Below are positions 1,416-29,756 of a stretch of DNA of 29,756 nucleotides, in pieces. The stretch is taken from positions 1 to 29,756 of IMG/VR virus record IMGVR_UViG_3300017766_003214; one strand, written 5' to 3'. The DNA is from a virus. Taxonomy: Duplodnaviria > Caudoviricetes. A program made the position numbers and the translations under genes. How positions within the stretch are numbered: the first letter of the stretch is position 1; every line of letters begins with the position of its first letter. The notes under the pieces were generated by a model. It was not told the DNA's origin. It made no database searches and worked only from the letters and a program-made list of their open reading frames with translations.

Positions 1416-1625
1416 ATGAGCGACACCAACGAACGAAAGCTGATCGCCAGGATCGCCGACCAGGACCTGATCATCCGGCGTCTGATCGGCGCCGGCAACG
1501 ACATGGCTGCGGCCCTGGGCGAGGGCTGCGCCCACGATGAGGACGGCTGCGATGCCTGTGTCGCCGCCGTGGCCGTATGGGACCGGCTCTACCGGGAGAT
1601 CAAAAGAAACGACAAGGCCCCGTAA
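1416..1625 (+). CDS. Small hypothetical protein (CAHDEDGCDAC, possible metal site)
   Basis: 69-aa ORF 4 nt after the previous stop, ending in a terminator. Confidence 0.65.
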   Translation: MSDTNERKLIARIADQDLIIRRLIGAGNDMAAALGEGCAHDEDGCDACVAAVAVWDRLYREIKRNDKAP

Positions 1626-1641
1626 ACCGGGGCTTTTTTGT
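1614..1641 (+). terminator. Rho-independent terminator
   Basis: GCCCCG-TAAAC-CGGGGC stem followed by TTTTTT. Confidence 0.85.
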
Positions 1642-1662: not shown

Positions 1663-1705
1663 AAGTGCAAATTACACTTGCATGCCCTGATAACACAGCC
1701 ATGTT
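1663..1705 (+). promoter_or_regulatory. Putative promoter TTGCAT(1678-1683)-N16-CATGTT(1700-1705) with an overlapping operator-like palindrome AAGTGCAA-A-TTACACTT (1663-1679)
   Basis: AT-rich tract just after a terminator; same geometry as five other sites in the window. Confidence 0.6.
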
Positions 1706-1710
1706 CCCAT

Positions 1711-2227
1711 CTGTCGCCGTTAACCCGGCACGCGTTTTTTGACAGTCCAACCAAACCGACAAGACCTGGCATAGGCCAGGCACACAACCCAGCTGGGCAA
1801 CCAGCTGGGCCACTTTACCGGCCCCGTACGGGGCCACCAACCGCATGAACCGACAACACCAGACTCCCTCAAGAGTCCGGGCCGGTAGCCCTCCAGGCGA
1901 CCCGGCCCGTCATGCGGATCCTTTACGCCCGCTCCTGCGGGCTTGACTAGCCGGATACTGAGACCGCCCGCGCCCACTACATTTCAGGGTACACGGCGGT
2001 TTCTACGAACCGGCAGTCTTCACTTTCCGGCAGCAATGCCGGCGATCCGGTTCACCCTCCCGCGCAAGCGGGCGCCAAGCCGGCCAGAAACCAATAACCT
2101 GGAGCCCTCGGATCAGTAATGGTCCTCGGTACATGACAGGGCGCCGATAGCAATCGGCCCAGATGCCGTAAAACGCCTACGGGGGACATCGTCCGTATCC
2201 GGCCACGCGCGCCTCATCTCCGCGTGG
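1711..2227 (+). ncRNA. Candidate large structured non-coding RNA or structured leader; family not recognised
   Basis: More than 12 consecutive or nested stems, four closed by GNRA loops on the + strand (GCAA 1797-1800, 2033-2036, 2064-2067; GTAA 2116-2119); multibranch closure CCGCATGA 1841-1848/TCATGCGG 1910-1917; no convincing ORF. Confidence 0.7.
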
Positions 2228-2242
2228 TGTCTCTTTCTACTG

Positions 2243-2653
2243 ATGCGTAAGCAGCAGCCGACCCCCGTGGACACGGGCACACAGTCCACCGACGCCGGCG
2301 CGGTCAAAGCCGCCGGCAAGCCGAGCAAGTTCACGCGAGGCAAGGATGTCACCTTCAAGGTGAACTCCAAGCTGACCACGAACCTGATCACCCTCGGGCA
2401 TCTCGCGTACCAGGCCCTCGAAACGCCCGGTACCGACATCGACCTGGCGCTCTCCAAGCGTCTCTGGGTCCGCAGCGTCAAGTCGCTCATCGCTCTCCGC
2501 CTCGCCGGGGGCGGCAGCGTCCCCGCCATCAAAGGCGTGGATGTTGTCGCTTTCTACGGGGTCGAGGGCGTGAAGCCCAGCAAGACCGAAGCGGACATCA
2601 AGCGCCTGGAGGCCAGGATCGCGAAGCTCAAGGCCAAGCTCGGCAAGAAGTGA
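2243..2653 (+). CDS. Basic hypothetical protein with C-terminal coiled coil
   Basis: 136 aa, strong GC3 codon bias, Lys-rich C-terminus, followed by a hairpin. Confidence 0.8.
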   Translation: MRKQQPTPVDTGTQSTDAGAVKAAGKPSKFTRGKDVTFKVNSKLTTNLITLGHLAYQALETPGTDIDLALSKRLWVRSVKSLIALRLAGGGSVPAIKGVDVVAFYGVEGVKPSKTEADIKRLEARIAKLKAKLGKK

Positions 2654-2657
2654 ACCC

Positions 2658-2691
2658 ACGGGGCGCTCATCCAAAACGATGGGCGCCCCGT
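2658..2691 (+). other. 14-bp intergenic hairpin (processing, stabilising or weak terminator element)
   Basis: ACGGGGCGCTCATC-CAAAAC-GATGGGCGCCCCGT with one U-G pair; only a weak U tract follows. Confidence 0.65.
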
Positions 2692-2725
2692 CCTATTTAT
2701 GAGGGGCGATCCCTTTTTCCCAACC

Positions 2726-3133
2726 ATGAAACACAACCAACCCGGCAAGTGGACCGCGAGCGAGCTCGCCGACCATGCTGCCAAACAGGTTCCGGCTTAC
2801 CTTAACAAGCCGACCGAACGCCTGGTGCGGTATTACACCACGCGACAGATCCTGGACAAGCCCAACCGGACCGACGCCGACAAGCGCCGGGCCGTCTACG
2901 GCGAACGCCAGTTGTACCAGCTCCTGCTGGCCCTCGTGTTCAACTACGCGGGCCCGGGCGCCATCGAGGCCCACAGTCGCGGATACTTCCGCTTCCCCAC
3001 GACCTCGCAGACCGGCACGGAGCACGCGCTCCGGGATCTGTATCTCCAGGCAATCGGGCCCGGTGGCATCGCCAACAACGCTTACACGCTGAAGGTGAAG
3101 ACCAAGTGGCTGCCGAAGGGGGGTTCCAAGTGA
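2726..3133 (+). CDS. MerR-type helix-turn-helix DNA-binding protein
   Basis: WTASELA...TERLVRYYTTRQILDKP...RRAVYGERQLYQL resembles the MerR winged HTH; start moved to the ATG at 2726 (CCAACC-ATG context). Confidence 0.75.
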   Translation: MKHNQPGKWTASELADHAAKQVPAYLNKPTERLVRYYTTRQILDKPNRTDADKRRAVYGERQLYQLLLALVFNYAGPGAIEAHSRGYFRFPTTSQTGTEHALRDLYLQAIGPGGIANNAYTLKVKTKWLPKGGSK

Positions 3134-3594
3134 GCACCCCGGAGCTTAACCCGATCGAACCCAAGGTGCTGGAAGCCTTCTCCTATGTGATCGTCACGGC
3201 GGTCGAAGGCGGCCATTACACCCGGGACGATTACCGCGAATGGACCCAGTACGCGCATGCGGACGGCCCGGACGGGTTTTTCCAAGCTGCCGTGACTGTC
3301 TACCCCAACCGGGTCGGCAAGTACGACAGCGATGAGAAGCCCGACCCCGTGCGCGTCACCGCGGACTGGTTCGCCCGGCGCATCGCGCAGGGTTTCCTGC
3401 GCGGGATCGACAAGAAGTACCCCGGGCTCGCCTGGCCTCGCAAGCCGGCCGAAGGCCCGGAGATCCCGCCGGCGCTGTTCGACAAGGCAGCCCGGCTGCT
3501 CATCGGCGATGAAGATGTCGCCGGGGAGATCGATGTCATCGACGCCGGCGCGCTGCTTCAGGTAGCCGTCTACGGCGAGGTCATCTACGGATAA
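3130..3594 (+). CDS. Conserved phage hypothetical protein (AxEGG ... DAxxxxQxAxYGEVIYG type)
   Basis: GTGA overlap with the upstream stop; C-terminal IDAGALLQVAVYGEVIYG resembles a recurrent phage protein motif. Confidence 0.75.
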   Translation: MSTPELNPIEPKVLEAFSYVIVTAVEGGHYTRDDYREWTQYAHADGPDGFFQAAVTVYPNRVGKYDSDEKPDPVRVTADWFARRIAQGFLRGIDKKYPGLAWPRKPAEGPEIPPALFDKAARLLIGDEDVAGEIDVIDAGALLQVAVYGEVIYG

Positions 3595-3597
3595 CAA

Positions 3598-3656
3598 GGG
3601 CGAAACGCACCGGCACGGGCCGGGCGTCCCGGCGTCTCGCGCCGGCTGACGAGCCC
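3598..3656 (+). ncRNA. Type II hammerhead ribozyme; predicted cleavage after C3628 (GUC)
   Basis: Stem II GGGC 3598-3601/GCCC 3653-3656; GAAA 3602-3605; stem III ACGC-a-CCGGC/GCCGG-GCGT; GTC 3626-3628; stem I CCGGCG-TCTCG-CGCCGG 3629-3645; core CTGACGA 3646-3652. Confidence 0.92.
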
Positions 3657-3694
3657 CGTCAGTTAATCCAAACCAACCAAAAAACCGAAAAAAC

Positions 3695-4114
3695 ATGATC
3701 AAAAACCTCAACCCCGATGTCCTCAAGGCCCTGGCCGTGGACATCGACGCCGCGCTCAAGGCTGTCGCCGACAAGCATGGTCTCAGCATCACCACCGGCA
3801 ACAGTCGTTATGACGACCTGACCGCCGAAATGAAGCTGAAGATCAGCACGATCGATGACACCGGCGTCACCAACACGCGCGAACGCAACGCGCTCAACAC
3901 CTGGTCCGATCACCTCCTGAACGGGCTGCAGTACGGCGACAAGGTCACGCTGCTCACCCGCAAGGGCAAGCTGCAGTACTCTGTCGCCGGCTATGTCAGC
4001 CGGTCCGGTAAGCTGCAGATGACCGGCCCGGACCAAAAGACCTGGCTGTTTGACGCAGCCGCGGTCGTGGCGCAGATCAAGGACGGCAAGGCGTCCGTGT
4101 CCAAAGCCTCCTAA
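3695..4114 (+). CDS. Phage hypothetical protein
   Basis: 139 aa, A/C-rich leader, typical codon bias. Confidence 0.8.
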   Translation: MIKNLNPDVLKALAVDIDAALKAVADKHGLSITTGNSRYDDLTAEMKLKISTIDDTGVTNTRERNALNTWSDHLLNGLQYGDKVTLLTRKGKLQYSVAGYVSRSGKLQMTGPDQKTWLFDAAAVVAQIKDGKASVSKAS

Positions 4115-4115
4115 C

Positions 4116-4544
4116 ATGGGCCTGGACATGTTCGCCCTGTCGTGTGACCCGGCCAAGGTCACGCGCACCGATCTGGGCGTGGATCAGCTTCCCTCGTGGC
4201 ACCCGGACACCCCGGCTGACGCGACCATGATCCACACCTGGCGCAAGCACCCGGACCTCCACCAATGGATGACCGACCTGTACTTCCGTAAGGAAGCGCT
4301 GGAAGGCCCCATCACCGAAGCTGAAATGGGCCCGGCCTTCAACATGGGCCAGTTCGTGCGCCTCACGGATCACGACCTGGATCAGCTTGAAGCCGCTGTC
4401 GAAGCCGGCGCGCTGCCCAAGGCCGCCGGCTTTTTCTGGGGCGTCAGCACCCCGGACGACCGCAAGGACGACCTGGCCTTCATCAAGAAGGCCCGGAAGG
4501 CCCTCAAGGCCGGCAAGGCGGTGTTCTACACCTCGTGGTGGTGA
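4116..4544 (+). CDS. Conserved phage protein of the MGLDM...WRKH...YxSWW type
   Basis: Starts MGLDMF 1 nt after the previous stop; HTWRKHPDLHQWM, GFFWG and FYTSWW motifs. Confidence 0.8.
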   Translation: MGLDMFALSCDPAKVTRTDLGVDQLPSWHPDTPADATMIHTWRKHPDLHQWMTDLYFRKEALEGPITEAEMGPAFNMGQFVRLTDHDLDQLEAAVEAGALPKAAGFFWGVSTPDDRKDDLAFIKKARKALKAGKAVFYTSWW

Positions 4545-4564
4545 TCGGTTTGGTTGGCTGTCTC

Positions 4565-4595
4565 GGGCCCGGGGTTCATCCCCCGGGCCTTTTTT
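4565..4595 (+). terminator. Rho-independent terminator
   Basis: GGCCCGGGG-TTCATC-CCCCGGGCC followed by TTTTTT. Confidence 0.88.
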
Positions 4596-4713
4596 GTGCC
4601 CGGCGCTGTCAGCACATGATCACGAAAACGACCCTTTCCGGTTCGGAAAACCCATTTTGGTTATCCGAACGGACATAAAAGGCCCGTTCCTGTGATCATA
4701 CGCTGACAGTAGA

Positions 4714-4971
4714 TTAGATCAGCCGGCGCCAGCGCGGCAGATCCTGCCGGGCCTTGCGCAGCTTCAGCCGGTACCGGCGCATCACCTGGGCCTTGCGCGC
4801 GCGCCGATCCGCAGCCCGGCGCCGGCTCTCAGCCACCTGGCAGCGCTGCTTGTCCAGGCGGTCTTGGTACCACGCGAACATCGACCCCACCGGCCAGGCC
4901 GGCAGCTTCAGGCGCCGGATCACGCGCGGCACCGATCCCACAGGATCGAGAAATTCGCTGTTTTCGGCCAT
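4714..4971 (-). CDS. Small Arg-rich hypothetical protein (start uncertain)
   Basis: 85-aa minus-strand frame (MAENSEFLDP...) with plausible codon use; no recognisable motif. Confidence 0.4.
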   Translation of the reverse strand: MAENSEFLDPVGSVPRVIRRLKLPAWPVGSMFAWYQDRLDKQRCQVAESRRRAADRRARKAQVMRRYRLKLRKARQDLPRWRRLI

Positions 4972-4974
4972 TAT

Positions 4975-5330
4975 TTTGAGGAAAGTTCCTCGTTTTGGGA
5001 ATTTCATGAAACCCCAATGTTTTTGAGACATCCCGGAAAGACAAGCCCATCAGCTGACACTAGCGTGGTCGGCTGCCTTTCCACGCTGCCTTGCACGCCA
5101 GGCGTGCGCAACCTCATGCAGATCAGCCCCATGCAGCCAGGCGTAGATCGGCCCGGTGATCGCCTGACTTGCGCGCGAGGAAGCTTTTCCTTTCCTGTCT
5201 ACGCATCAAACCCCCGTAAACATTAGAGGAAAGTGAGTCTCCCTACGGGATAGGTTAAGACGCCCTAACGGGCTGTCGTTAACCCCCTTAGCCCTGACGG
5301 GCAGGGGGCACGACCCGTTAACTCTGATCT
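4975..5330. other. Palindrome-rich non-coding region (candidate origin or regulatory hub)
   Basis: GAGGAA-AG-TTCCTC 4978-4991, TTTCATGAAA 5002-5011, TCCCTACGGGA 5240-5250, GCCCTAACGGGC 5262-5273, GCCCTGACGGGC 5291-5302. Confidence 0.45.
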
Positions 5331-5369
5331 CGCGTAGGCCGGACCCCATCCTCACAACCTGGACAACCC

Positions 5370-5804
5370 ATGAAAGTCATCCTGATCGTCAAAGGACACC
5401 CCAGACCTCAACCCAGGCCCAGGTTCATCAAGGGCAGAGCTGTCAGCTGCGCCGATCCCCTGGCAGCCGCCTGGAAAGCCCGGATCAAAGCCGCAGCTTC
5501 CCAGGTCCACCTGGAGCTCCCCAAAGGCCCTCTCAGCTGCAGCATGTGGTTCCGGATGCCAACCAAGGACCAGGCCAGGGCCGAGAAACCTCACACCCAG
5601 GTCCCGGACCTGGACAACCTGGCTAAGCTGGTCCTGGACGCGATCCAGGACACCGGGCTCCTGGTCAACGACTCCCAGGTCGCCAGGCTCAACCTGGACA
5701 AGACCTGGGCGCCCCTGGATCACTCCGGAGTCATGGTTGAGCTCGAAACCTGGGAACCCTCAGATCAGCGCGCAGAGCTGCCAAAGCCGGGCTGGCTGGA
5801 GTAA
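5370..5804 (+). CDS. rusA: RusA-family Holliday junction resolvase
   Basis: GHPRPQPRPR N-terminus; PDLDNLAKLVLDAI and LVNDSQV catalytic-region motifs. Confidence 0.9.
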   Translation: MKVILIVKGHPRPQPRPRFIKGRAVSCADPLAAAWKARIKAAASQVHLELPKGPLSCSMWFRMPTKDQARAEKPHTQVPDLDNLAKLVLDAIQDTGLLVNDSQVARLNLDKTWAPLDHSGVMVELETWEPSDQRAELPKPGWLE

Positions 5805-5859
5805 GGGGTATCAGGCCCCAGGCCAGGAGCTCAAAAGGCTTCCTGGGGCATTTGCGGGC

Positions 5860-6429
5860 CTACTTTTTCTCCCCGTTTAGGTCGATTACCCCGTCTTTTT
5901 GCGAAACTCCCGCTTTTACCGCGCTTTTCAGGTGATCGAAGGTTTGCCGGCCCCGCGTCACGAATTCCTCCAGCTCGCTCACGCTCATCTGGTGCAGCTG
6001 CTTGCCGGACTGTTTCAGCCCTAGCTGCAAGCTCGCAGCCACCGCGCTCAACCCGTGCCCGGACGCCTCCAGCGTCCACTTGGCTGCCTGGAACCGCACC
6101 TGGGCCGGCGAAGCCGGATCGGTCATCAGCTGCTGGATCACCGACCAGGCCCTGGTTGCCCCAGCTGTCTTGATCTCCGTGTCCCGGCGCAGCTCAACCA
6201 CCTCCCGGATCCGCGGATCAGCCAGCAGCTGCTTGGCAGCCGGGCCTGGATCGGCGTAGCCGGCCGCTTCAGCTGCCAGCTTGGCATCGCCGCCGTTGCC
6301 AATGTACAGGTCGCAGAAGCCCAGCTCCTGGTCGGTCAGCGCAGCTGATCCGGCTGCCGGCTTGACCTGGAGCTCGCCTTTCCAGGAGTCCTTGGCCTGG
6401 GTCACATTCATGGGGGTCTTAGGTGTCAT
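5860..6429 (-). CDS. terS: Terminase small subunit-like HTH protein
   Basis: LTDQELGFCDLYIGNGGDAKLAAEAAGYA...AKQLLADPRIR matches the TerS N-terminal HTH pattern, followed by an oligomerisation-type helix pair (VRFQAAKWTLE). Confidence 0.78.
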   Translation of the reverse strand: MTPKTPMNVTQAKDSWKGELQVKPAAGSAALTDQELGFCDLYIGNGGDAKLAAEAAGYADPGPAAKQLLADPRIREVVELRRDTEIKTAGATRAWSVIQQLMTDPASPAQVRFQAAKWTLEASGHGLSAVAASLQLGLKQSGKQLHQMSVSELEEFVTRGRQTFDHLKSAVKAGVSQKDGVIDLNGEKK

Positions 6430-6438
6430 AGGGAAAGA

Positions 6439-6882
6439 TCAGCGCGCGAGCTCCTGGACCCGGCGCGCGGCGTCATACCTGGCTGCCGGCAGATCAGGGT
6501 GCCAGGCGTTGAACCGGTAGCGCCGGAAGCCCTCATAGCCCAGGTTCCAGGCAAGCCAGGTCTCACAAGCCAGGGCCGGCCGGCCGATGTCCCTGGTCAG
6601 CCTGGCGCGCAGATACGACAGCCAGGTCTCGGCGTAGGCCCGGGCTCGATCCGGGATCGAAGCTGACCGGTAAGGCCAGGTCGGCAGCCCGGCAGCCTTG
6701 CGCAGCCGGCTGCAATCAGCCCAGGCGGCAGCGTGCCATTGCAGCACGCCCTTGGCTGCGCCCCGGTCGCCGTCTATGTTCCGGCTGCCGGTCTCGATCG
6801 TCTCGACCGCCTGGACCCACCGGCCCGGCACCGGCTCGGCTACGACTGAGGCCAGGGCTAGGGCGCATAGGGCGATCGGCAT
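6439..6882 (-). CDS. Lysozyme-like/lytic transglycosylase protein with hydrophobic N-terminus
   Basis: AVETIETG (candidate catalytic Glu), GDRGAAKGVLQ and AWNLG motifs; signal-like MPIALCALALASVVA. Confidence 0.7.
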   Translation of the reverse strand: MPIALCALALASVVAEPVPGRWVQAVETIETGSRNIDGDRGAAKGVLQWHAAAWADCSRLRKAAGLPTWPYRSASIPDRARAYAETWLSYLRARLTRDIGRPALACETWLAWNLGYEGFRRYRFNAWHPDLPAARYDAARRVQELAR

Positions 6883-6887
6883 GGCGC

Positions 6888-6917
6888 AGCCTACGCAGCG
6901 TAGGGCGCAGCATGCAA
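6888..6917 (-). promoter_or_regulatory. Putative leaderless promoter TTGCAT-N18-TAGGCT-N5-ATG with palindrome CCTACGC-A-GCGTAGG (6890-6904)
   Basis: Read on the minus strand directly upstream of the ATG at 6882. Confidence 0.45.
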
Positions 6918-7143
6918 GGGCAAACCCGGCAGCATACCCACCCCACCTATCGGCGCCCTCGCTCTAGTATCTCGCGCGCGTGCAAGGGAGATCCACCCAC
7001 CCACGCACCACCCCATCCACCCCATGCACACCCATCCACGGGTCAACCCCCGCCTACGCCCCCGGATTTCTCTACTCTTTTTCATCTCCCCGCGCGCGGA
7101 AAAATCCGGCGGCCCAAAAAACTTTGTCCTACATTTTGAGCCG

Positions 7144-7171
7144 TTGCACTTATTCGCAAGTTTCACACCTT
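7144..7171 (+). promoter_or_regulatory. Putative promoter TTGCAC-N16-CACCTT, 6 nt before ATG 7178
   Basis: Recurrent motif geometry; heads the morphogenesis operon. Confidence 0.6.
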
Positions 7172-7177
7172 GTCACC

Positions 7178-9117
<1,940 letters not shown>

Positions 9118-25805: not shown

Positions 25806-28800
25806 ATGGCCGTAAACATTTCCGAGAGACTGAAAACGCTTATTCAGCAGGGCGCCAACATTCCGCCGGCTGCGAGCGGAACCGCCCCTGAAGGCGGCCC
25901 TTCTCTCGCCCTTCCGCTCGATCCTTCTTTCGCTGCCGGCGTTGCCGAGCGCGTCAAAGCGGAAACACCCAGCGCGCAATTCGCCGCGCAGCAAGGCGCC
26001 CCGGCCCTGCCGACCAGCGGCGTGGACACGATCCTGAACCCGTTCGTGCAGCCCGAGGGCGTGCCGATGGGCGCTCCGACTGATCTATCATCTTTGTTCG
26101 GCATGGGCGCCGCCGGCCTCGGCCCGGTCTCGCCGGCTCCGATGTCCTCGCCCGCCCTGGGCGCCGGGCTCCCGTCCTATGACGCCGGCATGGCTCCGAC
26201 CATGGCGCCGTCCGTTTCCCCGTTTGCCCAGCCCCAGGTTCCGCCCCAGCTGGCGATGGGCCAGGCCCAGGGCCAGGCGATCACCGGTGCCACGACTCTG
26301 GCTGATCTGGTTTCCCGTGGCCTGGGCGGCCAGATGCCCCAGGCTGCCCAGATCCCCCAACTGGCCGCTCAGCCCTTTGCCCAGGCGATGCCCCAGGCGA
26401 TGCCCCAGGCTCCGGTTGCCGCTCCCCAGATGGCGCCCCAGGGTGCTTTCCCCCAGGCCCCTGGGATTGCCCAGCCCGCAGCCCCGTCCGGCATGGCGTC
26501 TTTGTTTGCGCCGCCCCCCGCTCCGCCTCAAGTTCAGTCCCCGCAGCAGCCCTATGGACAATTCGCCCCAATTCAGCCCCCGGTTCAAACGGCGGGTCAG
26601 CCCCAAGTTCCCGCTGCTCCCGCCCCCGCGCCCTTCCCGACCTTCGCCCAGCCCCCGGCAGCCCCTGCTCCGGTCGCTCCGGCTCCTGTTCAACAGGCTG
26701 CTCCGGCTCCCGCCCCGGTAGCCCAGGCTCCCGCCCCGGCGCGCCAGCAGCCGACCAGCCGCGGCACCCCGCTGCAGACCGATCCGAACGCCGTCAACCC
26801 GGCCGAGGACTTCCCGGAAGCCCTGGCTGCGCGCCGCGCCAACCAGCGCGCGGACGGCAACGACCCCGGCCGCCCGTACCAGCCGGCCCCCTACGAGCGC
26901 CCGGACGAACCGGCGCCGATCGAGCAGCCCGAGGAGCAGCCGGCCGAAGCCCCGGTCGAGCCCGAGCTGGAGCCGGCCATGGCCGCGTCTCCGCTGCAGA
27001 ACGCGCAGCCCACCACACCGGCCCTGGTCAACGGCGAGCTAATGATCTCCGGCGGCAACCGCCGTTTCTCCCGTGGCGGACCGGTCGGCGATGACGCCGG
27101 CGGCAAGGGCGTCTCGCCCAATCTGCTGCAGCGCGTGGGCCTGACCCGCGCCATCCTGAGCCAGTTCGTGGACCGGTCGGTGATCGGCACCATGACTGTC
27201 CCGGATCGCCCGATGGACAACGCGGACGATGTCGCCGCCCTGGCCTACGAATACCTCCGCAAGCAGCCCCAGGAAAACTTCATCGCGGTCATCCTGGATG
27301 GCCAGGGCCGTCCGATCCAGATCCTGCGCCATACCCTGGGCAACATCAGCTCGACCAATTTCATGCCCCATGTGATTGCCGGCGTAGCTGCCAGCACCCG
27401 TGGCGCCCGGACTGTGTACATGGTGCACAACCACCCGTCCACCACCACCCGCTTCTCCAATGCCGATGTCATGGCGGCCCAGAACCTGTACAAGACGATC
27501 GAAGCCATCGGCATGCGTTTTGGCGGTTCCCTGGTCGTGACTGACGGCGATGCGGCGCAAGGCACGATGCGCCCCAAGTACATCTTCCACCCCGGCGGCG
27601 AGGATGTTGAAAAGCTTCCGATCCCGATGGCCGGGAACGCGGACACGGCCCCAAATCTTGACAGCGTCAAGGAGGTCGTGCCGTTTGACGATCGCCCGGA
27701 AACGACCGAAACAACGGCCAACATCCAGGTCGTCGAACGCCTGTTTGAGGTCCGCAAAGAAGCCCTGTTCCCGCGCATCACCAGCCCCCAGGAAGCCGTC
27801 CTGCAGATCCCGCCCCTTCTCAGGAACCAGTCCGGTGTCGCCTTGATGGACAATGCCGGTCGCCTGGTCGGCGTGATCCCGATGAGCATCGGCGAGATGC
27901 GGAATGTGTCGTCCTCCGGCAGCATGATCTATCCGTCTCAGGGCCAAAACCGCGACTACATCAGCAGCGAGGAAGATCGCGCTCCTGGCGAGGTAGACAA
28001 GCGCGCCTACAAGCGAACCCAGTTCAGCAAAGACACCCAGCCCGGTGCCTGGAACAACCCGCTCGCCATGCTCATGGCTGCGCTGGAGCGATCCAACGCC
28101 GAGCGCGTGATCATCAGCATCGGTGCCGATGAAATTGGCACCTCGGGTAGAGACATCCGATCTGAAGCCATCAAAAATCTGCAGAAAGCCCTGCTGCGTA
28201 CCGGCGGAAAGAAGGTCTCGATCGATGATGTTATCAATAACAAGAAAAACTTCCCCGACTTGGTGCTCAAGGACACATTTTACAACGGCAGTTATTCGAC
28301 ATCGCCTGATGAAAAAGGCGGCCGTCTCAGCACCGGCCGGCGCCTGGGCTTCAACGAGGAAGGTTCCGCCTACGGCGACCAGGGCCAGGAGGGCGACCAG
28401 GCCCCGATCGAGCGCGAAGCCCCCCAGTCCCTGGGCGATGTCGTCAGCCAGGGCATGGAAGGCGAAAATGTAGCCGAGACCAACCCGGACGACCCCAACG
28501 CCGGGGCTGAATTTGCCCGCCAGGAGCGCGAGGCCGGTGCCCGCGTCAATCCTCCCAGCGGCTTGGACAACGCCAAGCCGGCCGAGCCGGTCATCAAGAA
28601 GCCGCGCAAGCCTCGGGCCAAGAAGGCCGCGGCTCCGGGCGTCAATGTCTCCGCCTTCCCCCGCCTGGACGCCACGCCTGGTGCGTTCGGCCGCCTGTCC
28701 GGCGAGCAGCTGAAACAGTTCGGCCTATCGGACGCCATGCTGGATCAGTTCATCGAGCACTCCACCTATGGCCAGGTCATGTCCGGTGTCGAGTCGGTTA

Positions 28801-29756
28801 AGACTAACGATGACGCAGCCCACATCGTGGCTGCCATGCGCAAGCGCCCTCAGGAGCAGATCGTGCTGCTGATCACCGATAAGAACGGCAAGCCCCTCCA
28901 GATTGCCGTCCATTCCCTGGGCGGCCCGGCTTCCGCCGGCTTCAACCCTGGCATCCTGATCGGCGCCGCCGCCAGCACCCCTGGCGCCGCCAAGGTATGG
29001 TTCATCCACAACCACCCGTCCGGCAAGAGCTCCCTGTCCCCGGCCGACCTGAGCGCTGGCAACGCAGTCGAGAACCTGTGCAAAGCCGCCAACCTCCGGT
29101 ACATGGCTACCATGGCCGTGGCCGGCTCCAATTACGCGGTCATGGACAACAGCGGAGCGATCATGGGTGGCCAGAAGATCCCCCCGCATCCGCGCAAGTT
29201 CAGCATCCCGCTGACCGAGCGCATCTTCTCCTACCGCGTTAGCCAGAACACCCCGGCTTTCGCGGACCCTGCCGTCGCCGGCCCCGAGATGAAGCGCATC
29301 TTTGGCGAAAGCCAGCCTGGCATCATCCTGGCCGACAACTCCAACCGCCCGGTCGCGGCGATCCCCCTGGACGGCGATGTCATGCAAGCCATGCGCGCGA
29401 TCCTGCCCGGCGAAAACCCGAACAAGCAGACTGGTTTCGCCAAATACGCAGCCGGCGTCGAGCGTTCCGGCGGGGTCAACATGTTCATCTACACGGCTGA
29501 CTTGCCAATGGATCTCGCGATCAAGGTCATCGAGAACATGAGCAAGGTCGCCAACGCGACCAAGGTCACGGCCCTGGATGCTCTGAATTCCAACGAAGTC
29601 ACCTTGTCTCGCCACATCATCGGCTACGCATCTGACTTCAAGGAGCCCGGCTCCAGCTACAACGCCGGCCAGGACGCCCAGGAGGGCGAAGCCGATGCGC
29701 CGCAGTCGATCGAGGATGTCGTCAATCAGGGGCTCTCCGAGCCCCAAAAAAAAAAG
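25806..29756 (+). CDS. Giant polyvalent-type protein (1317 codons visible, 3'-truncated) with Pro/Gln/Ala-rich N-terminus and tandem RadC/JAB domains
   Basis: Hand-translated frame MAVNISERLKTLIQQG... with no stop found to the window end; PQENF...VHNHPSTTTRFSNAD (HNHPS 27426-27440) and PQEQI...IHNHPSGKSSLSPAD (HNHPS 29007-29021). Confidence 0.88.
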   Translation, partial: MAVNISERLKTLIQQGANIPPAASGTAPEGGPSLALPLDPSFAAGVAERVKAETPSAQFAAQQGAPALPTSGVDTILNPFVQPEGVPMGAPTDLSSLFGMGAAGLGPVSPAPMSSPALGAGLPSYDAGMAPTMAPSVSPFAQPQVPPQLAMGQAQGQAITGATTLADLVSRGLGGQMPQAAQIPQLAAQPFAQAMPQAMPQAPVAAPQMAPQGAFPQAPGIAQPAAPSGMASLFAPPPAPPQVQSPQQPYGQFAPIQPPVQTAGQPQVPAAPAPAPFPTFAQPPAAPAPVAPAPVQQAAPAPAPVAQAPAPARQQPTSRGTPLQTDPNAVNPAEDFPEALAARRANQRADGNDPGRPYQPAPYERPDEPAPIEQPEEQPAEAPVEPELEPAMAASPLQNAQPTTPALVNGELMISGGNRRFSRGGPVGDDAGGKGVSPNLLQRVGLTRAILSQFVDRSVIGTMTVPDRPMDNADDVAALAYEYLRKQPQENFIAVILDGQGRPIQILRHTLGNISSTNFMPHVIAGVAASTRGARTVYMVHNHPSTTTRFSNADVMAAQNLYKTIEAIGMRFGGSLVVTDGDAAQGTMRPKYIFHPGGEDVEKLPIPMAGNADTAPNLDSVKEVVPFDDRPETTETTANIQVVERLFEVRKEALFPRITSPQEAVLQIPPLLRNQSGVALMDNAGRLVGVIPMSIGEMRNVSSSGSMIYPSQGQNRDYISSEEDRAPGEVDKRAYKRTQFSKDTQPGAWNNPLAMLMAALERSNAERVIISIGADEIGTSGRDIRSEAIKNLQKALLRTGGKKVSIDDVINNKKNFPDLVLKDTFYNGSYSTSPDEKGGRLSTGRRLGFNEEGSAYGDQGQEGDQAPIEREAPQSLGDVVSQGMEGENVAETNPDDPNAGAEFARQEREAGARVNPPSGLDNAKPAEPVIKKPRKPRAKKAAAPGVNVSAFPRLDATPGAFGRLSGEQLKQFGLSDAMLDQFIEHSTYGQVMSGVESVKTNDDAAHIVAAMRKRPQEQIVLLITDKNGKPLQIAVHSLGGPASAGFNPGILIGAAASTPGAAKVWFIHNHPSGKSSLSPADLSAGNAVENLCKAANLRYMATMAVAGSNYAVMDNSGAIMGGQKIPPHPRKFSIPLTERIFSYRVSQNTPAFADPAVAGPEMKRIFGESQPGIILADNSNRPVAAIPLDGDVMQAMRAILPGENPNKQTGFAKYAAGVERSGGVNMFIYTADLPMDLAIKVIENMSKVANATKVTALDALNSNEVTLSRHIIGYASDFKEPGSSYNAGQDAQEGEADAPQSIEDVVNQGLSEPQKKK

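Follow-up and report, generated by a model that had tools for sequence, protein, structure and literature searches.

The structured stretch described here is the 5' part of a 2.9-kb operon of a freshwater phage, and it holds four separately folding RNA units in a row. These are swappable RNA genes behind a promoter-like site, joined by CUUU linkers and filling slots whose contents are exchanged among related phages. On balance we favour the view that the transcript is cut by host RNase into small stable RNAs. The window (the whole stretch of DNA analysed, 29,756 nucleotides) is a 29.8-kb tailed-phage fragment with genes for a terminase, a portal, a major head protein and RusA, and a PAPS-reductase-like gene. 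The region in question lies between a terminator-like hairpin, which ends the upstream operon, and a 136-codon ORF (Table 1).

A preliminary description had taken this region for one large non-coding RNA of about 520 nucleotides. The relatives argue otherwise. Unit C is found in 6 of 8 arrays and D-E in 4 of 8, other units, tRNAs and ORFs are inserted in the row, and predicted pairing lies mostly inside units. This turnover, together with the mostly within-unit pairing, therefore speaks against a single large RNA.

Table 1. Features of the array operon and its surroundings, in window positions
Feature	Positions	Strand	Support or remark
Intrinsic-terminator-like hairpin and T run, end of upstream operon	1617..1639	+	sequence; same layout in all relatives
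Imperfect palindrome over the -35 hexamer	1663..1679	.	conserved pairing columns in alignment
Promoter-like site CTTGCAT-N16-CATGTT-CC; putative start near 1712	1677..1707	+	hexamers in 8/8 arrays
Unit A, constant leader	1711..1816	+	8/8 arrays
boxA-like element CGTTTTTTGACAGT	1733..1746	+	invariant in 8/8 arrays
5' arm of predicted long-range helix (18 bp and one bulge)	1741..1759	+	invariant leader linker
CUUU joint A|B	1813..1816	+	unpaired probability ~0.96-1.0
Unit B, constant: 5' hairpin and three-way junction, end AUC-CUUU	1817..1924	+	8/8 arrays; z -6.3
CUUU joint B|C	1921..1924	+	five different units follow among eight arrays
Unit C, optional: 5' hairpin and long interrupted hairpin, end UUCA-CUUU	1925..2026	+	6/8 arrays
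CUUU joint C|D	2023..2026	+	tRNA-Glu gene follows in L005 and L124
Unit D-E, optional	2027..2236	+	4/8 arrays; 9/27 pairs change both sides
CUUU joint before first ORF	2233..2236	+	end of a tRNA-Glu gene in L002 and L005
136-aa basic orphan protein, first ORF of the operon in the window phage	2243..2653	+	
Type II hammerhead-like candidate ribozyme, putative triplet GUC 3626-3628	3599..3654	+	Rfam RF02276, 20.1 bits (cut-off 37)
3' arm of predicted long-range helix	4545..4562	+	between last early stop codon and terminator
Intrinsic-terminator-like hairpin and T run, end of array operon	4565..4595	+	

Folding and turnover of the units

The evidence supports a non-coding, structured RNA on the + strand that covaries and is absent from Rfam 15, and to this extent the preliminary description holds up. 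The stems it listed are present in the sequence, the one at 2166-2182 as a 5-bp stem in the predicted fold. The interval 1700-2240 folds at -237 kcal/mol, with z -7.59 on the + strand against 100 dinucleotide shuffles and z -3.31 on the - strand. The claim that GNRA loops favour the + strand is also borne out: they cap 4 of 10 tetraloop hairpins on that strand and 0 of 10 on the other; for the remainder of the window the figure is 12 of 231. When 200-nt tiles are scored instead (15 shuffles each), those over the array give z -3.5 and -3.8, which is within the top ten of 148 tiles and not the lowest. The tiles at 4501 (-5.8), 3701 (-4.8) and 2501 (-4.6) score lower. The first of these is the strongest-folding tile of the window and contains a long imperfect inverted repeat (~4605-4710) that lies directly after the terminator of the array operon. 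L124 has a 41-nt version of this repeat, which is possibly an origin or a regulatory site.

Expected pairs fall within units (A-A 25, B-B 30, C-C 29, D-D 43), and those for A-B, A-C and B-C are about 0. The exception is a contact of the 5' end with D, with some 14 expected pairs; since arrays can lack D, it cannot be a general one. Covariation among homologues, by which the preliminary description would judge such a fold, is present in two units. Both partners change in 13 of the 28 pairs of C, where 95.8% of cells remain paired (6 sequences, 55-97% identity), and in 9 of the 27 pairs of the D core (4 sequences, 66-77% identity). For C and for D alike the covariation score lies above all 500 shuffles and all slid controls, for sets of sequences that are few and related. 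Units C and D are real RNA folds. A and B are too conserved for covariation to say much: only 2 of 30 pairs in B change on both sides and 4 of 47 in A, all four of them in the hairpin at 1788-1809.

The comparison covers eight distinct arrays from viral and metagenome contigs, namely that of the window and those of L001, L002, L003, L004, L005, L037 and L124. L039 is grouped under L001, L006, L036, L041 and L042 under L004, and L040 under L005. The L037 contig ends inside its array, and L038, whose length and coordinates are as in the window, was left out of the count. Read from the promoter, all eight arrays split into units at CUUU, AUUU or GUUU, and the order of units is collinear in every one. 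D and E always occur together. Further folded units are found outside the window: F in three arrays, G in two, H in one and I in two (L001 1665-1756, L002 2356-2628, L003 1706-1861, L004 1967-2072, L005 2769-2914, and L037). F and H fold with z -3.6 to -6.2 and G and I weakly, and none has an Rfam match at cut-off.

These units share their slots with other kinds of gene. Eight complete tRNA-Glu or tRNA-Asp genes occupy the same slots in four arrays (L002, L003, L005 and L124), where tRNAs and structured RNAs other than tRNA are thus clustered; the window's own array has no tRNA gene. Small ORF cassettes take the slots of RNA units in three arrays. At L003 1864-2096, L005 2690-2990 and L124 2444-2745 the arrays repeat one kind of tRNA gene in diverged copies (three Asp or two Glu) and do not combine different tRNAs. 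GAA is not the phage's preferred Glu codon, despite the copies of tRNA-Glu. Repeated copies of one type may serve to evade tRNA-cutting defences.

Leader A consists of a 5' hairpin, the boxA-like run, a single-stranded A/C linker, two hairpins and CCA-CUUU, and in 5 of 8 arrays its 5' hairpin exists in a version longer by 46 nt. D-E has two invariant cores, CCAGAAA.CAAU.ACCUGGA and GACAGGGCGCCG, together with variable stems capped by GYAA and a final hairpin with a conserved loop. The arms of D vary freely yet remain paired, and their caps are GUAA or GCAA. By eye in the alignment, the invariant GGCG of D at 2140-2143 could pair with CGCC at 2210-2213 in the conserved loop of hairpin E. Searches for D elsewhere gave little. 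A loose pattern for the unit hit 16 stretches in viral contigs, of which 4 come from the known relatives and 12 are unrelated chance matches. Unit profiles matched only contigs already known among the loci of 77 PAPS-reductase and 80 terminase relatives, a covariance model of D found nothing convincing in 38 loci or 4 MAGs, and in the candidate host family, with 101 genomes searched, it gave 3 weak matches of 20-25 bits that look like coding DNA.

Promoter-like site, leader and the two ends of the operon

The pattern CTTGCA(T/C)-N16-CATGTT is conserved in all eight arrays, and a generic promoter scan found no promoter. In its strict form the pattern occurs in 14 of 20 rRNA-operon leaders (loci with enough upstream sequence) from the family of G004, a MAG titled Opitutaceae that carries a terminase-portal-capsid relative (L138). 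It occurs in 0 of 8 and 0 of 10 leaders of two control groups, the only two used, and once in the two strands of the window, for a pattern that was drawn after both sets had been seen. Judged from the promoter match, the host is probably a member of the Opitutaceae, so that the site points to a host for an uncultured phage group. Terminase neighbours were also tried as a host marker and rejected, their best matches being in MAGs of several phyla. By eye, the phage genes have no evident Shine-Dalgarno sequence. The palindrome over the -35 hexamer is a possible repressor site. Host RNA polymerase would start near 1712 at this promoter of host rRNA type.

The leader that follows is laid out like an rRNA leader, yet its boxA-like run departs from the boxA consensus. 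In host-family rRNA leaders a promoter is followed by a hairpin and by boxA, within which a long helix begins, as the predicted helix of the phage does in its boxA-like run. This order agrees with the account in the sections available of PMC10250234. The phage run is identical at 13 of 14 positions to the rRNA spacer boxA in 3 loci of G004's family. The consensus C at position 4 is replaced by T in the phage, and the rRNA boxA elements read in the candidate host family keep the C. This C is described as critical in the portion of PMC5725501 at hand, where the chromosomal mutant tested is the double change C4T/T6C. Open-access text yielded no relevant paper on boxA at phage tRNA genes. Compared with a candidate-host 16S rRNA, the arms and loops have no long complement, at most 8 nt.

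The far end of the operon is complementary to the leader. The duplex of the two arms has an energy of -31.3 kcal/mol, and the next best among 5933 tiles has -18.6. Both arms are identical in all 6 loci that reach the operon end, over spans of 2822-3406 nt (L005, L040, L006, L039 and L037 are too short to reach the 3' arm), and the terminator stem beside the 3' arm varies while the arm itself stays invariant. Because the arms never vary, covariation lends the pairing no support. We found no paper in open-access text on long-range pairing in phage early transcripts. After full transcription, 4545-4562 would pair with 1741-1759 and close the RNA in the manner of an rRNA leader-trailer helix. According to parts of PMC10250234, such a helix of more than 17 bp is needed for 30S biogenesis in E. 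coli.

The likeness to an rRNA operon is one of promoter, hairpin, boxA-like run and a strand predicted to pair with the far end, here over 18 bp. The differences are that no rRNA is enclosed, that the helix is about half the length of the host's, and that boxA has T for C at position 4. The loop here would hold small RNAs, five ORFs and a hammerhead-like element instead.

Linkers, proposed cutting and competing readings

It is important to realize how closely the linkers follow the units. All 4 CTTT in 1711-2240 are at unit boundaries, where about 1.2 would be expected in the interval from the window rate of 2.2 per kb, and the linkers at the joints are predicted to be unpaired. A stem of at least 5 bp begins within 4 nt at 19 of 29 distinct non-tRNA unit starts versus 9 of 127 other NTTT sites; the 29 starts are related and not independent, and the tRNA starts have no such stem. 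Hairpins at 5' ends stabilise cut RNAs. All eight tRNA genes end in CCA-(C/A/G)UUU, and an RNase E/G protein is encoded in 21 of the 21 candidate-host-family genomes searched. The RNase E motif is a single-stranded RN-WUU in the text available of PMC5222698, and 13 of 22 distinct joints fit it, these joints having been picked by their TTT; the other 9 lack its purine. An available section of PMC2190699 sets out a model in which RNase E cuts 1-3 nt behind CCA, and adds that RNase P is able to work in its absence.

We believe that a host enzyme of the RNase E/G type would cut in the U-rich linkers, as it does behind the CCA ends of tRNAs. Most non-tRNA units open with a hairpin of 5-9 bp and end in a closing stem, and these would then protect the products. 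The arrays themselves may vary through recombination between collinear relatives, with no dedicated integrase. At the joints there is no repeat family and nothing repeated beyond four bases, and the attC-like junction of an integron-type array is absent. No integrase family is found among the ORFs scanned in the window, nor among 26 ORFs scanned in the 99%-complete relative G005 (two of them from L124). G005 does have a helicase and an AAA_24 ATPase, the latter presumably a mark of Sak4-type recombinases.

RNA-labelled sequencing runs bear on this as well. Eleven runs hold part of 1500-2800, all as contigs, and we examined seven, six of them RNA-labelled; X1 is probably DNA. Unit D is in contigs of 5 of the 6 RNA-labelled runs, from five studies. 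The runs were selected because this stretch is in them, and DNA may be present among their sequences; they show presence in RNA libraries only. Pieces of D are free of differences in X7 (2039-2202), X8 (1981-2165) and X10 (2040-2177), and variants in X3, X7 and X9 keep its pairs (2113 U>A with 2122 G>U; 2125 C>U, giving G-U; GUAA to GCAA). The contigs cover D, C and downstream ORFs, with no information on strand, end or level, and X3 also covers most of 2416-4560 and the head genes at near identity. Positions 4801-7200 in X3, and A and most of B in most runs, are uncovered; these gaps were not counted as evidence. Two joints are crossed uncut, C|D by X8 1981-2165 and the last joint by X9 2129-2313.

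Such contigs are what would be seen if the units stayed on one uncut RNA, a modular leader or scaffold with optional domains from which only the tRNAs are excised, and the collinear order and the constant presence of A and B fit this as well. We nevertheless consider it unlikely. Excision of tRNAs would break the uncut RNA because tRNA genes sit between units in L005 and L124, there is little predicted pairing between units, and new 5' ends are the best explanation for the hairpins that open directly behind the linkers. The end complementarity can be given another meaning, which we regard as quite improbable: a short terminator-ended 3' RNA would act in trans, pairing with the leader and with A/C-rich translation starts and so damping early expression, and the other units would be unrelated to it. 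A stop codon, an invariant G/U-rich 18-mer and a terminator are indeed the layout of a small RNA, and for the arm the start of ORF 3695 is a possible second partner (-18.2 kcal/mol). Its best partner by far, however, is the non-coding leader with no start codon nearby, and a separate 3' RNA would need a promoter or processing site of its own.

The original idea of one large RNA of a new class, with a single tertiary fold and the 136-aa protein as partner, draws on the strong overall folding, the GNRA loops and the lack of an Rfam match. It is largely refuted by the turnover of units, and we give it very little weight: C is missing from 2 of 8 arrays and D-E from 4 of 8, unrelated units, tRNAs and ORFs are inserted, and in 5 arrays (L002, L003, L004, L005 and L124) tRNAs or ORF cassettes separate the protein from the RNA units. 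The proposal that the protein is a dedicated RNA partner is unsupported, in view of the same separation, of its presence without D-E and of its lack of a known fold, although the protein comes after the array in each of the 7 cases where the locus extends far enough. The protein has 17 homologues, none annotated, belongs to no Pfam or PHROG family and has no PDB sequence or fold match; in the viral library only its own record matches, and there is no relative in genome contigs and no Atlas match. A ribbon-helix-helix fold was considered for it and rejected (model pTM 0.50, four helices). It is equally hard to credit that the hairpins act as DNA, as recombination junctions or single-strand cassette signals with the inverted 18-mers as protein-binding sites. 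Sharp boundaries of exchange and invariant inverted arms would suit this, but the covariation tolerates G-U pairs and the GNRA loops are on one strand only, the one-base gap between the arms suits an RNA bulge better than a protein site, and there is neither a junction repeat beyond four bases nor an integrase. We attach next to no credence to unit B as a small peptide gene, with a 5' hairpin, an A/C-rich linker and an AUG (position 1845) laid out as in the ORF cassettes. The AUG is invariant in 8 of 8 arrays and the opening frame is shared, but the stop is not conserved (19-77 codons, reading into whichever unit follows) and the AUG lies inside an invariant 8-bp stem.

Relation to known systems

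The novelty claimed in the preliminary description stands against Rfam 15, in which the window has 0 matches at the gathering score. In agreement with it, there is no match at family cut-offs to GOLLD, ROOL, RNase P, tmRNA or group I/II introns, and 6S, SRP, Y RNA, riboswitch and ribozyme families of Rfam 15 also stay short of their cut-offs in the window. Within the region itself nothing falls below E 8 (the best, at E 8 and 9.4, are terminator-level noise), and there is no tRNA or tmRNA. In the relatives' arrays only tRNAs reach cut-off. A blastn search of annotated phages returned 4 records with a 36-nt match at E 0.2, which is chance, and a plasmid search found none. Several resemblances were considered and rejected: fragments like Y RNA, c-di-GMP-I and the cobalamin riboswitch are not conserved or go unscored by Rfam, and MISL is absent from the main text of PMC5737381 as available. 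For self-cleaving ribozymes (hammerhead, HDV/theta, twister, pistol, hatchet) the array has no Rfam match, and their catalytic motifs are absent from it as a set, in a search run without a positive control. For the survey of structured RNAs in viruses of PMC10690425, the search for the unit motifs covered four supplementary files and found none of them; the units may be among its candidates, its remaining archives lying outside the search.

The array is likely a processed tRNA and stable-RNA operon akin to the T4 cluster, carrying several new RNA families. The stable RNAs of T4 are co-transcribed with tRNAs and processed by host RNases. Here too, stable RNAs would be grouped with tRNAs, as RNAC and RNAD are in the T4 cluster. 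Unlike T4, a 44-kb phage has at least 7 distinct folded units (B, C, D-E, F, G, H and I) that are optional and exchangeable, and the promoter is of rRNA type. RNAC and RNAD are phage stable RNAs of unknown function that the consulted part of PMC9697503 classes as late, whereas the operon here would be early. GOLLD and ROOL, in the main text available of PMC5737381, are likewise structured RNAs that phages carry in the neighbourhood of tRNA genes; each is one large fold, in contrast to the independent optional units of this array, which have no Rfam match. Theta (HDV-like) ribozymes at phage tRNA 3' ends are, in the literature at hand, another structured RNA of phage tRNA arrays, but no HDV-like match was found here by Rfam or by a descriptor (run without a positive control).

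The role of the released RNAs is the weakest part of our proposal. We suggest only tentatively that they would be accessory factors in host takeover or counter-defence, like the tRNAs that share their slots; this role is favoured because the units trade places with tRNAs and small early ORFs. A bolder version seems to us rather unlikely. It would have an rRNA-operon mimic, with host-type promoter, variant boxA and leader-trailer helix, frame a hot spot for swapping non-coding RNA genes, with at least 7 new RNA families as interchangeable anti-defence or host-takeover tools and D-E as a new class of tertiary-folded functional RNA.

Phage accessory regions are familiar as rows of tRNAs and small protein genes. 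The exchangeable cargo here is largely non-coding RNA, with presence and absence variants, sharp boundaries and covarying folds; therefore each unit can be made and tested alone in vitro. This makes the array a compact model in which to ask what the stable RNAs that phages carry beside tRNAs do (T4 RNAC and RNAD, GOLLD, ROOL), a question of long standing, and whether end pairing in the style of rRNA has been taken over by phages for transcripts of their own.

A few observations concern the rest of the window. Outside the array, 3599-3654 has catalytic cores in the order of type II hammerheads (RF02276); unlike the members of that family it scores below the Rfam cut-off, and it is a candidate ribozyme only. 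The cores GAAAC, GUC and CUGACGAG are present in the window, L001, L002, L005 and L124, and the same pattern has no match in L003 and L004. In the window as in L124 (4587-4651) the element separates two early ORFs and immediately precedes an A/C-rich translation start. The X3 contigs stop at 3602 and resume at 3645, around the element, which is a weak hint only. Between the 136-aa ORF and the next ORF, a 14-bp hairpin at 2658-2691 is conserved in relatives and is a possible processing or stabilising signal. At the far end of the window, 25806-29756 is a very long ORF with RadC-like JAB domains, among virion or injected proteins.
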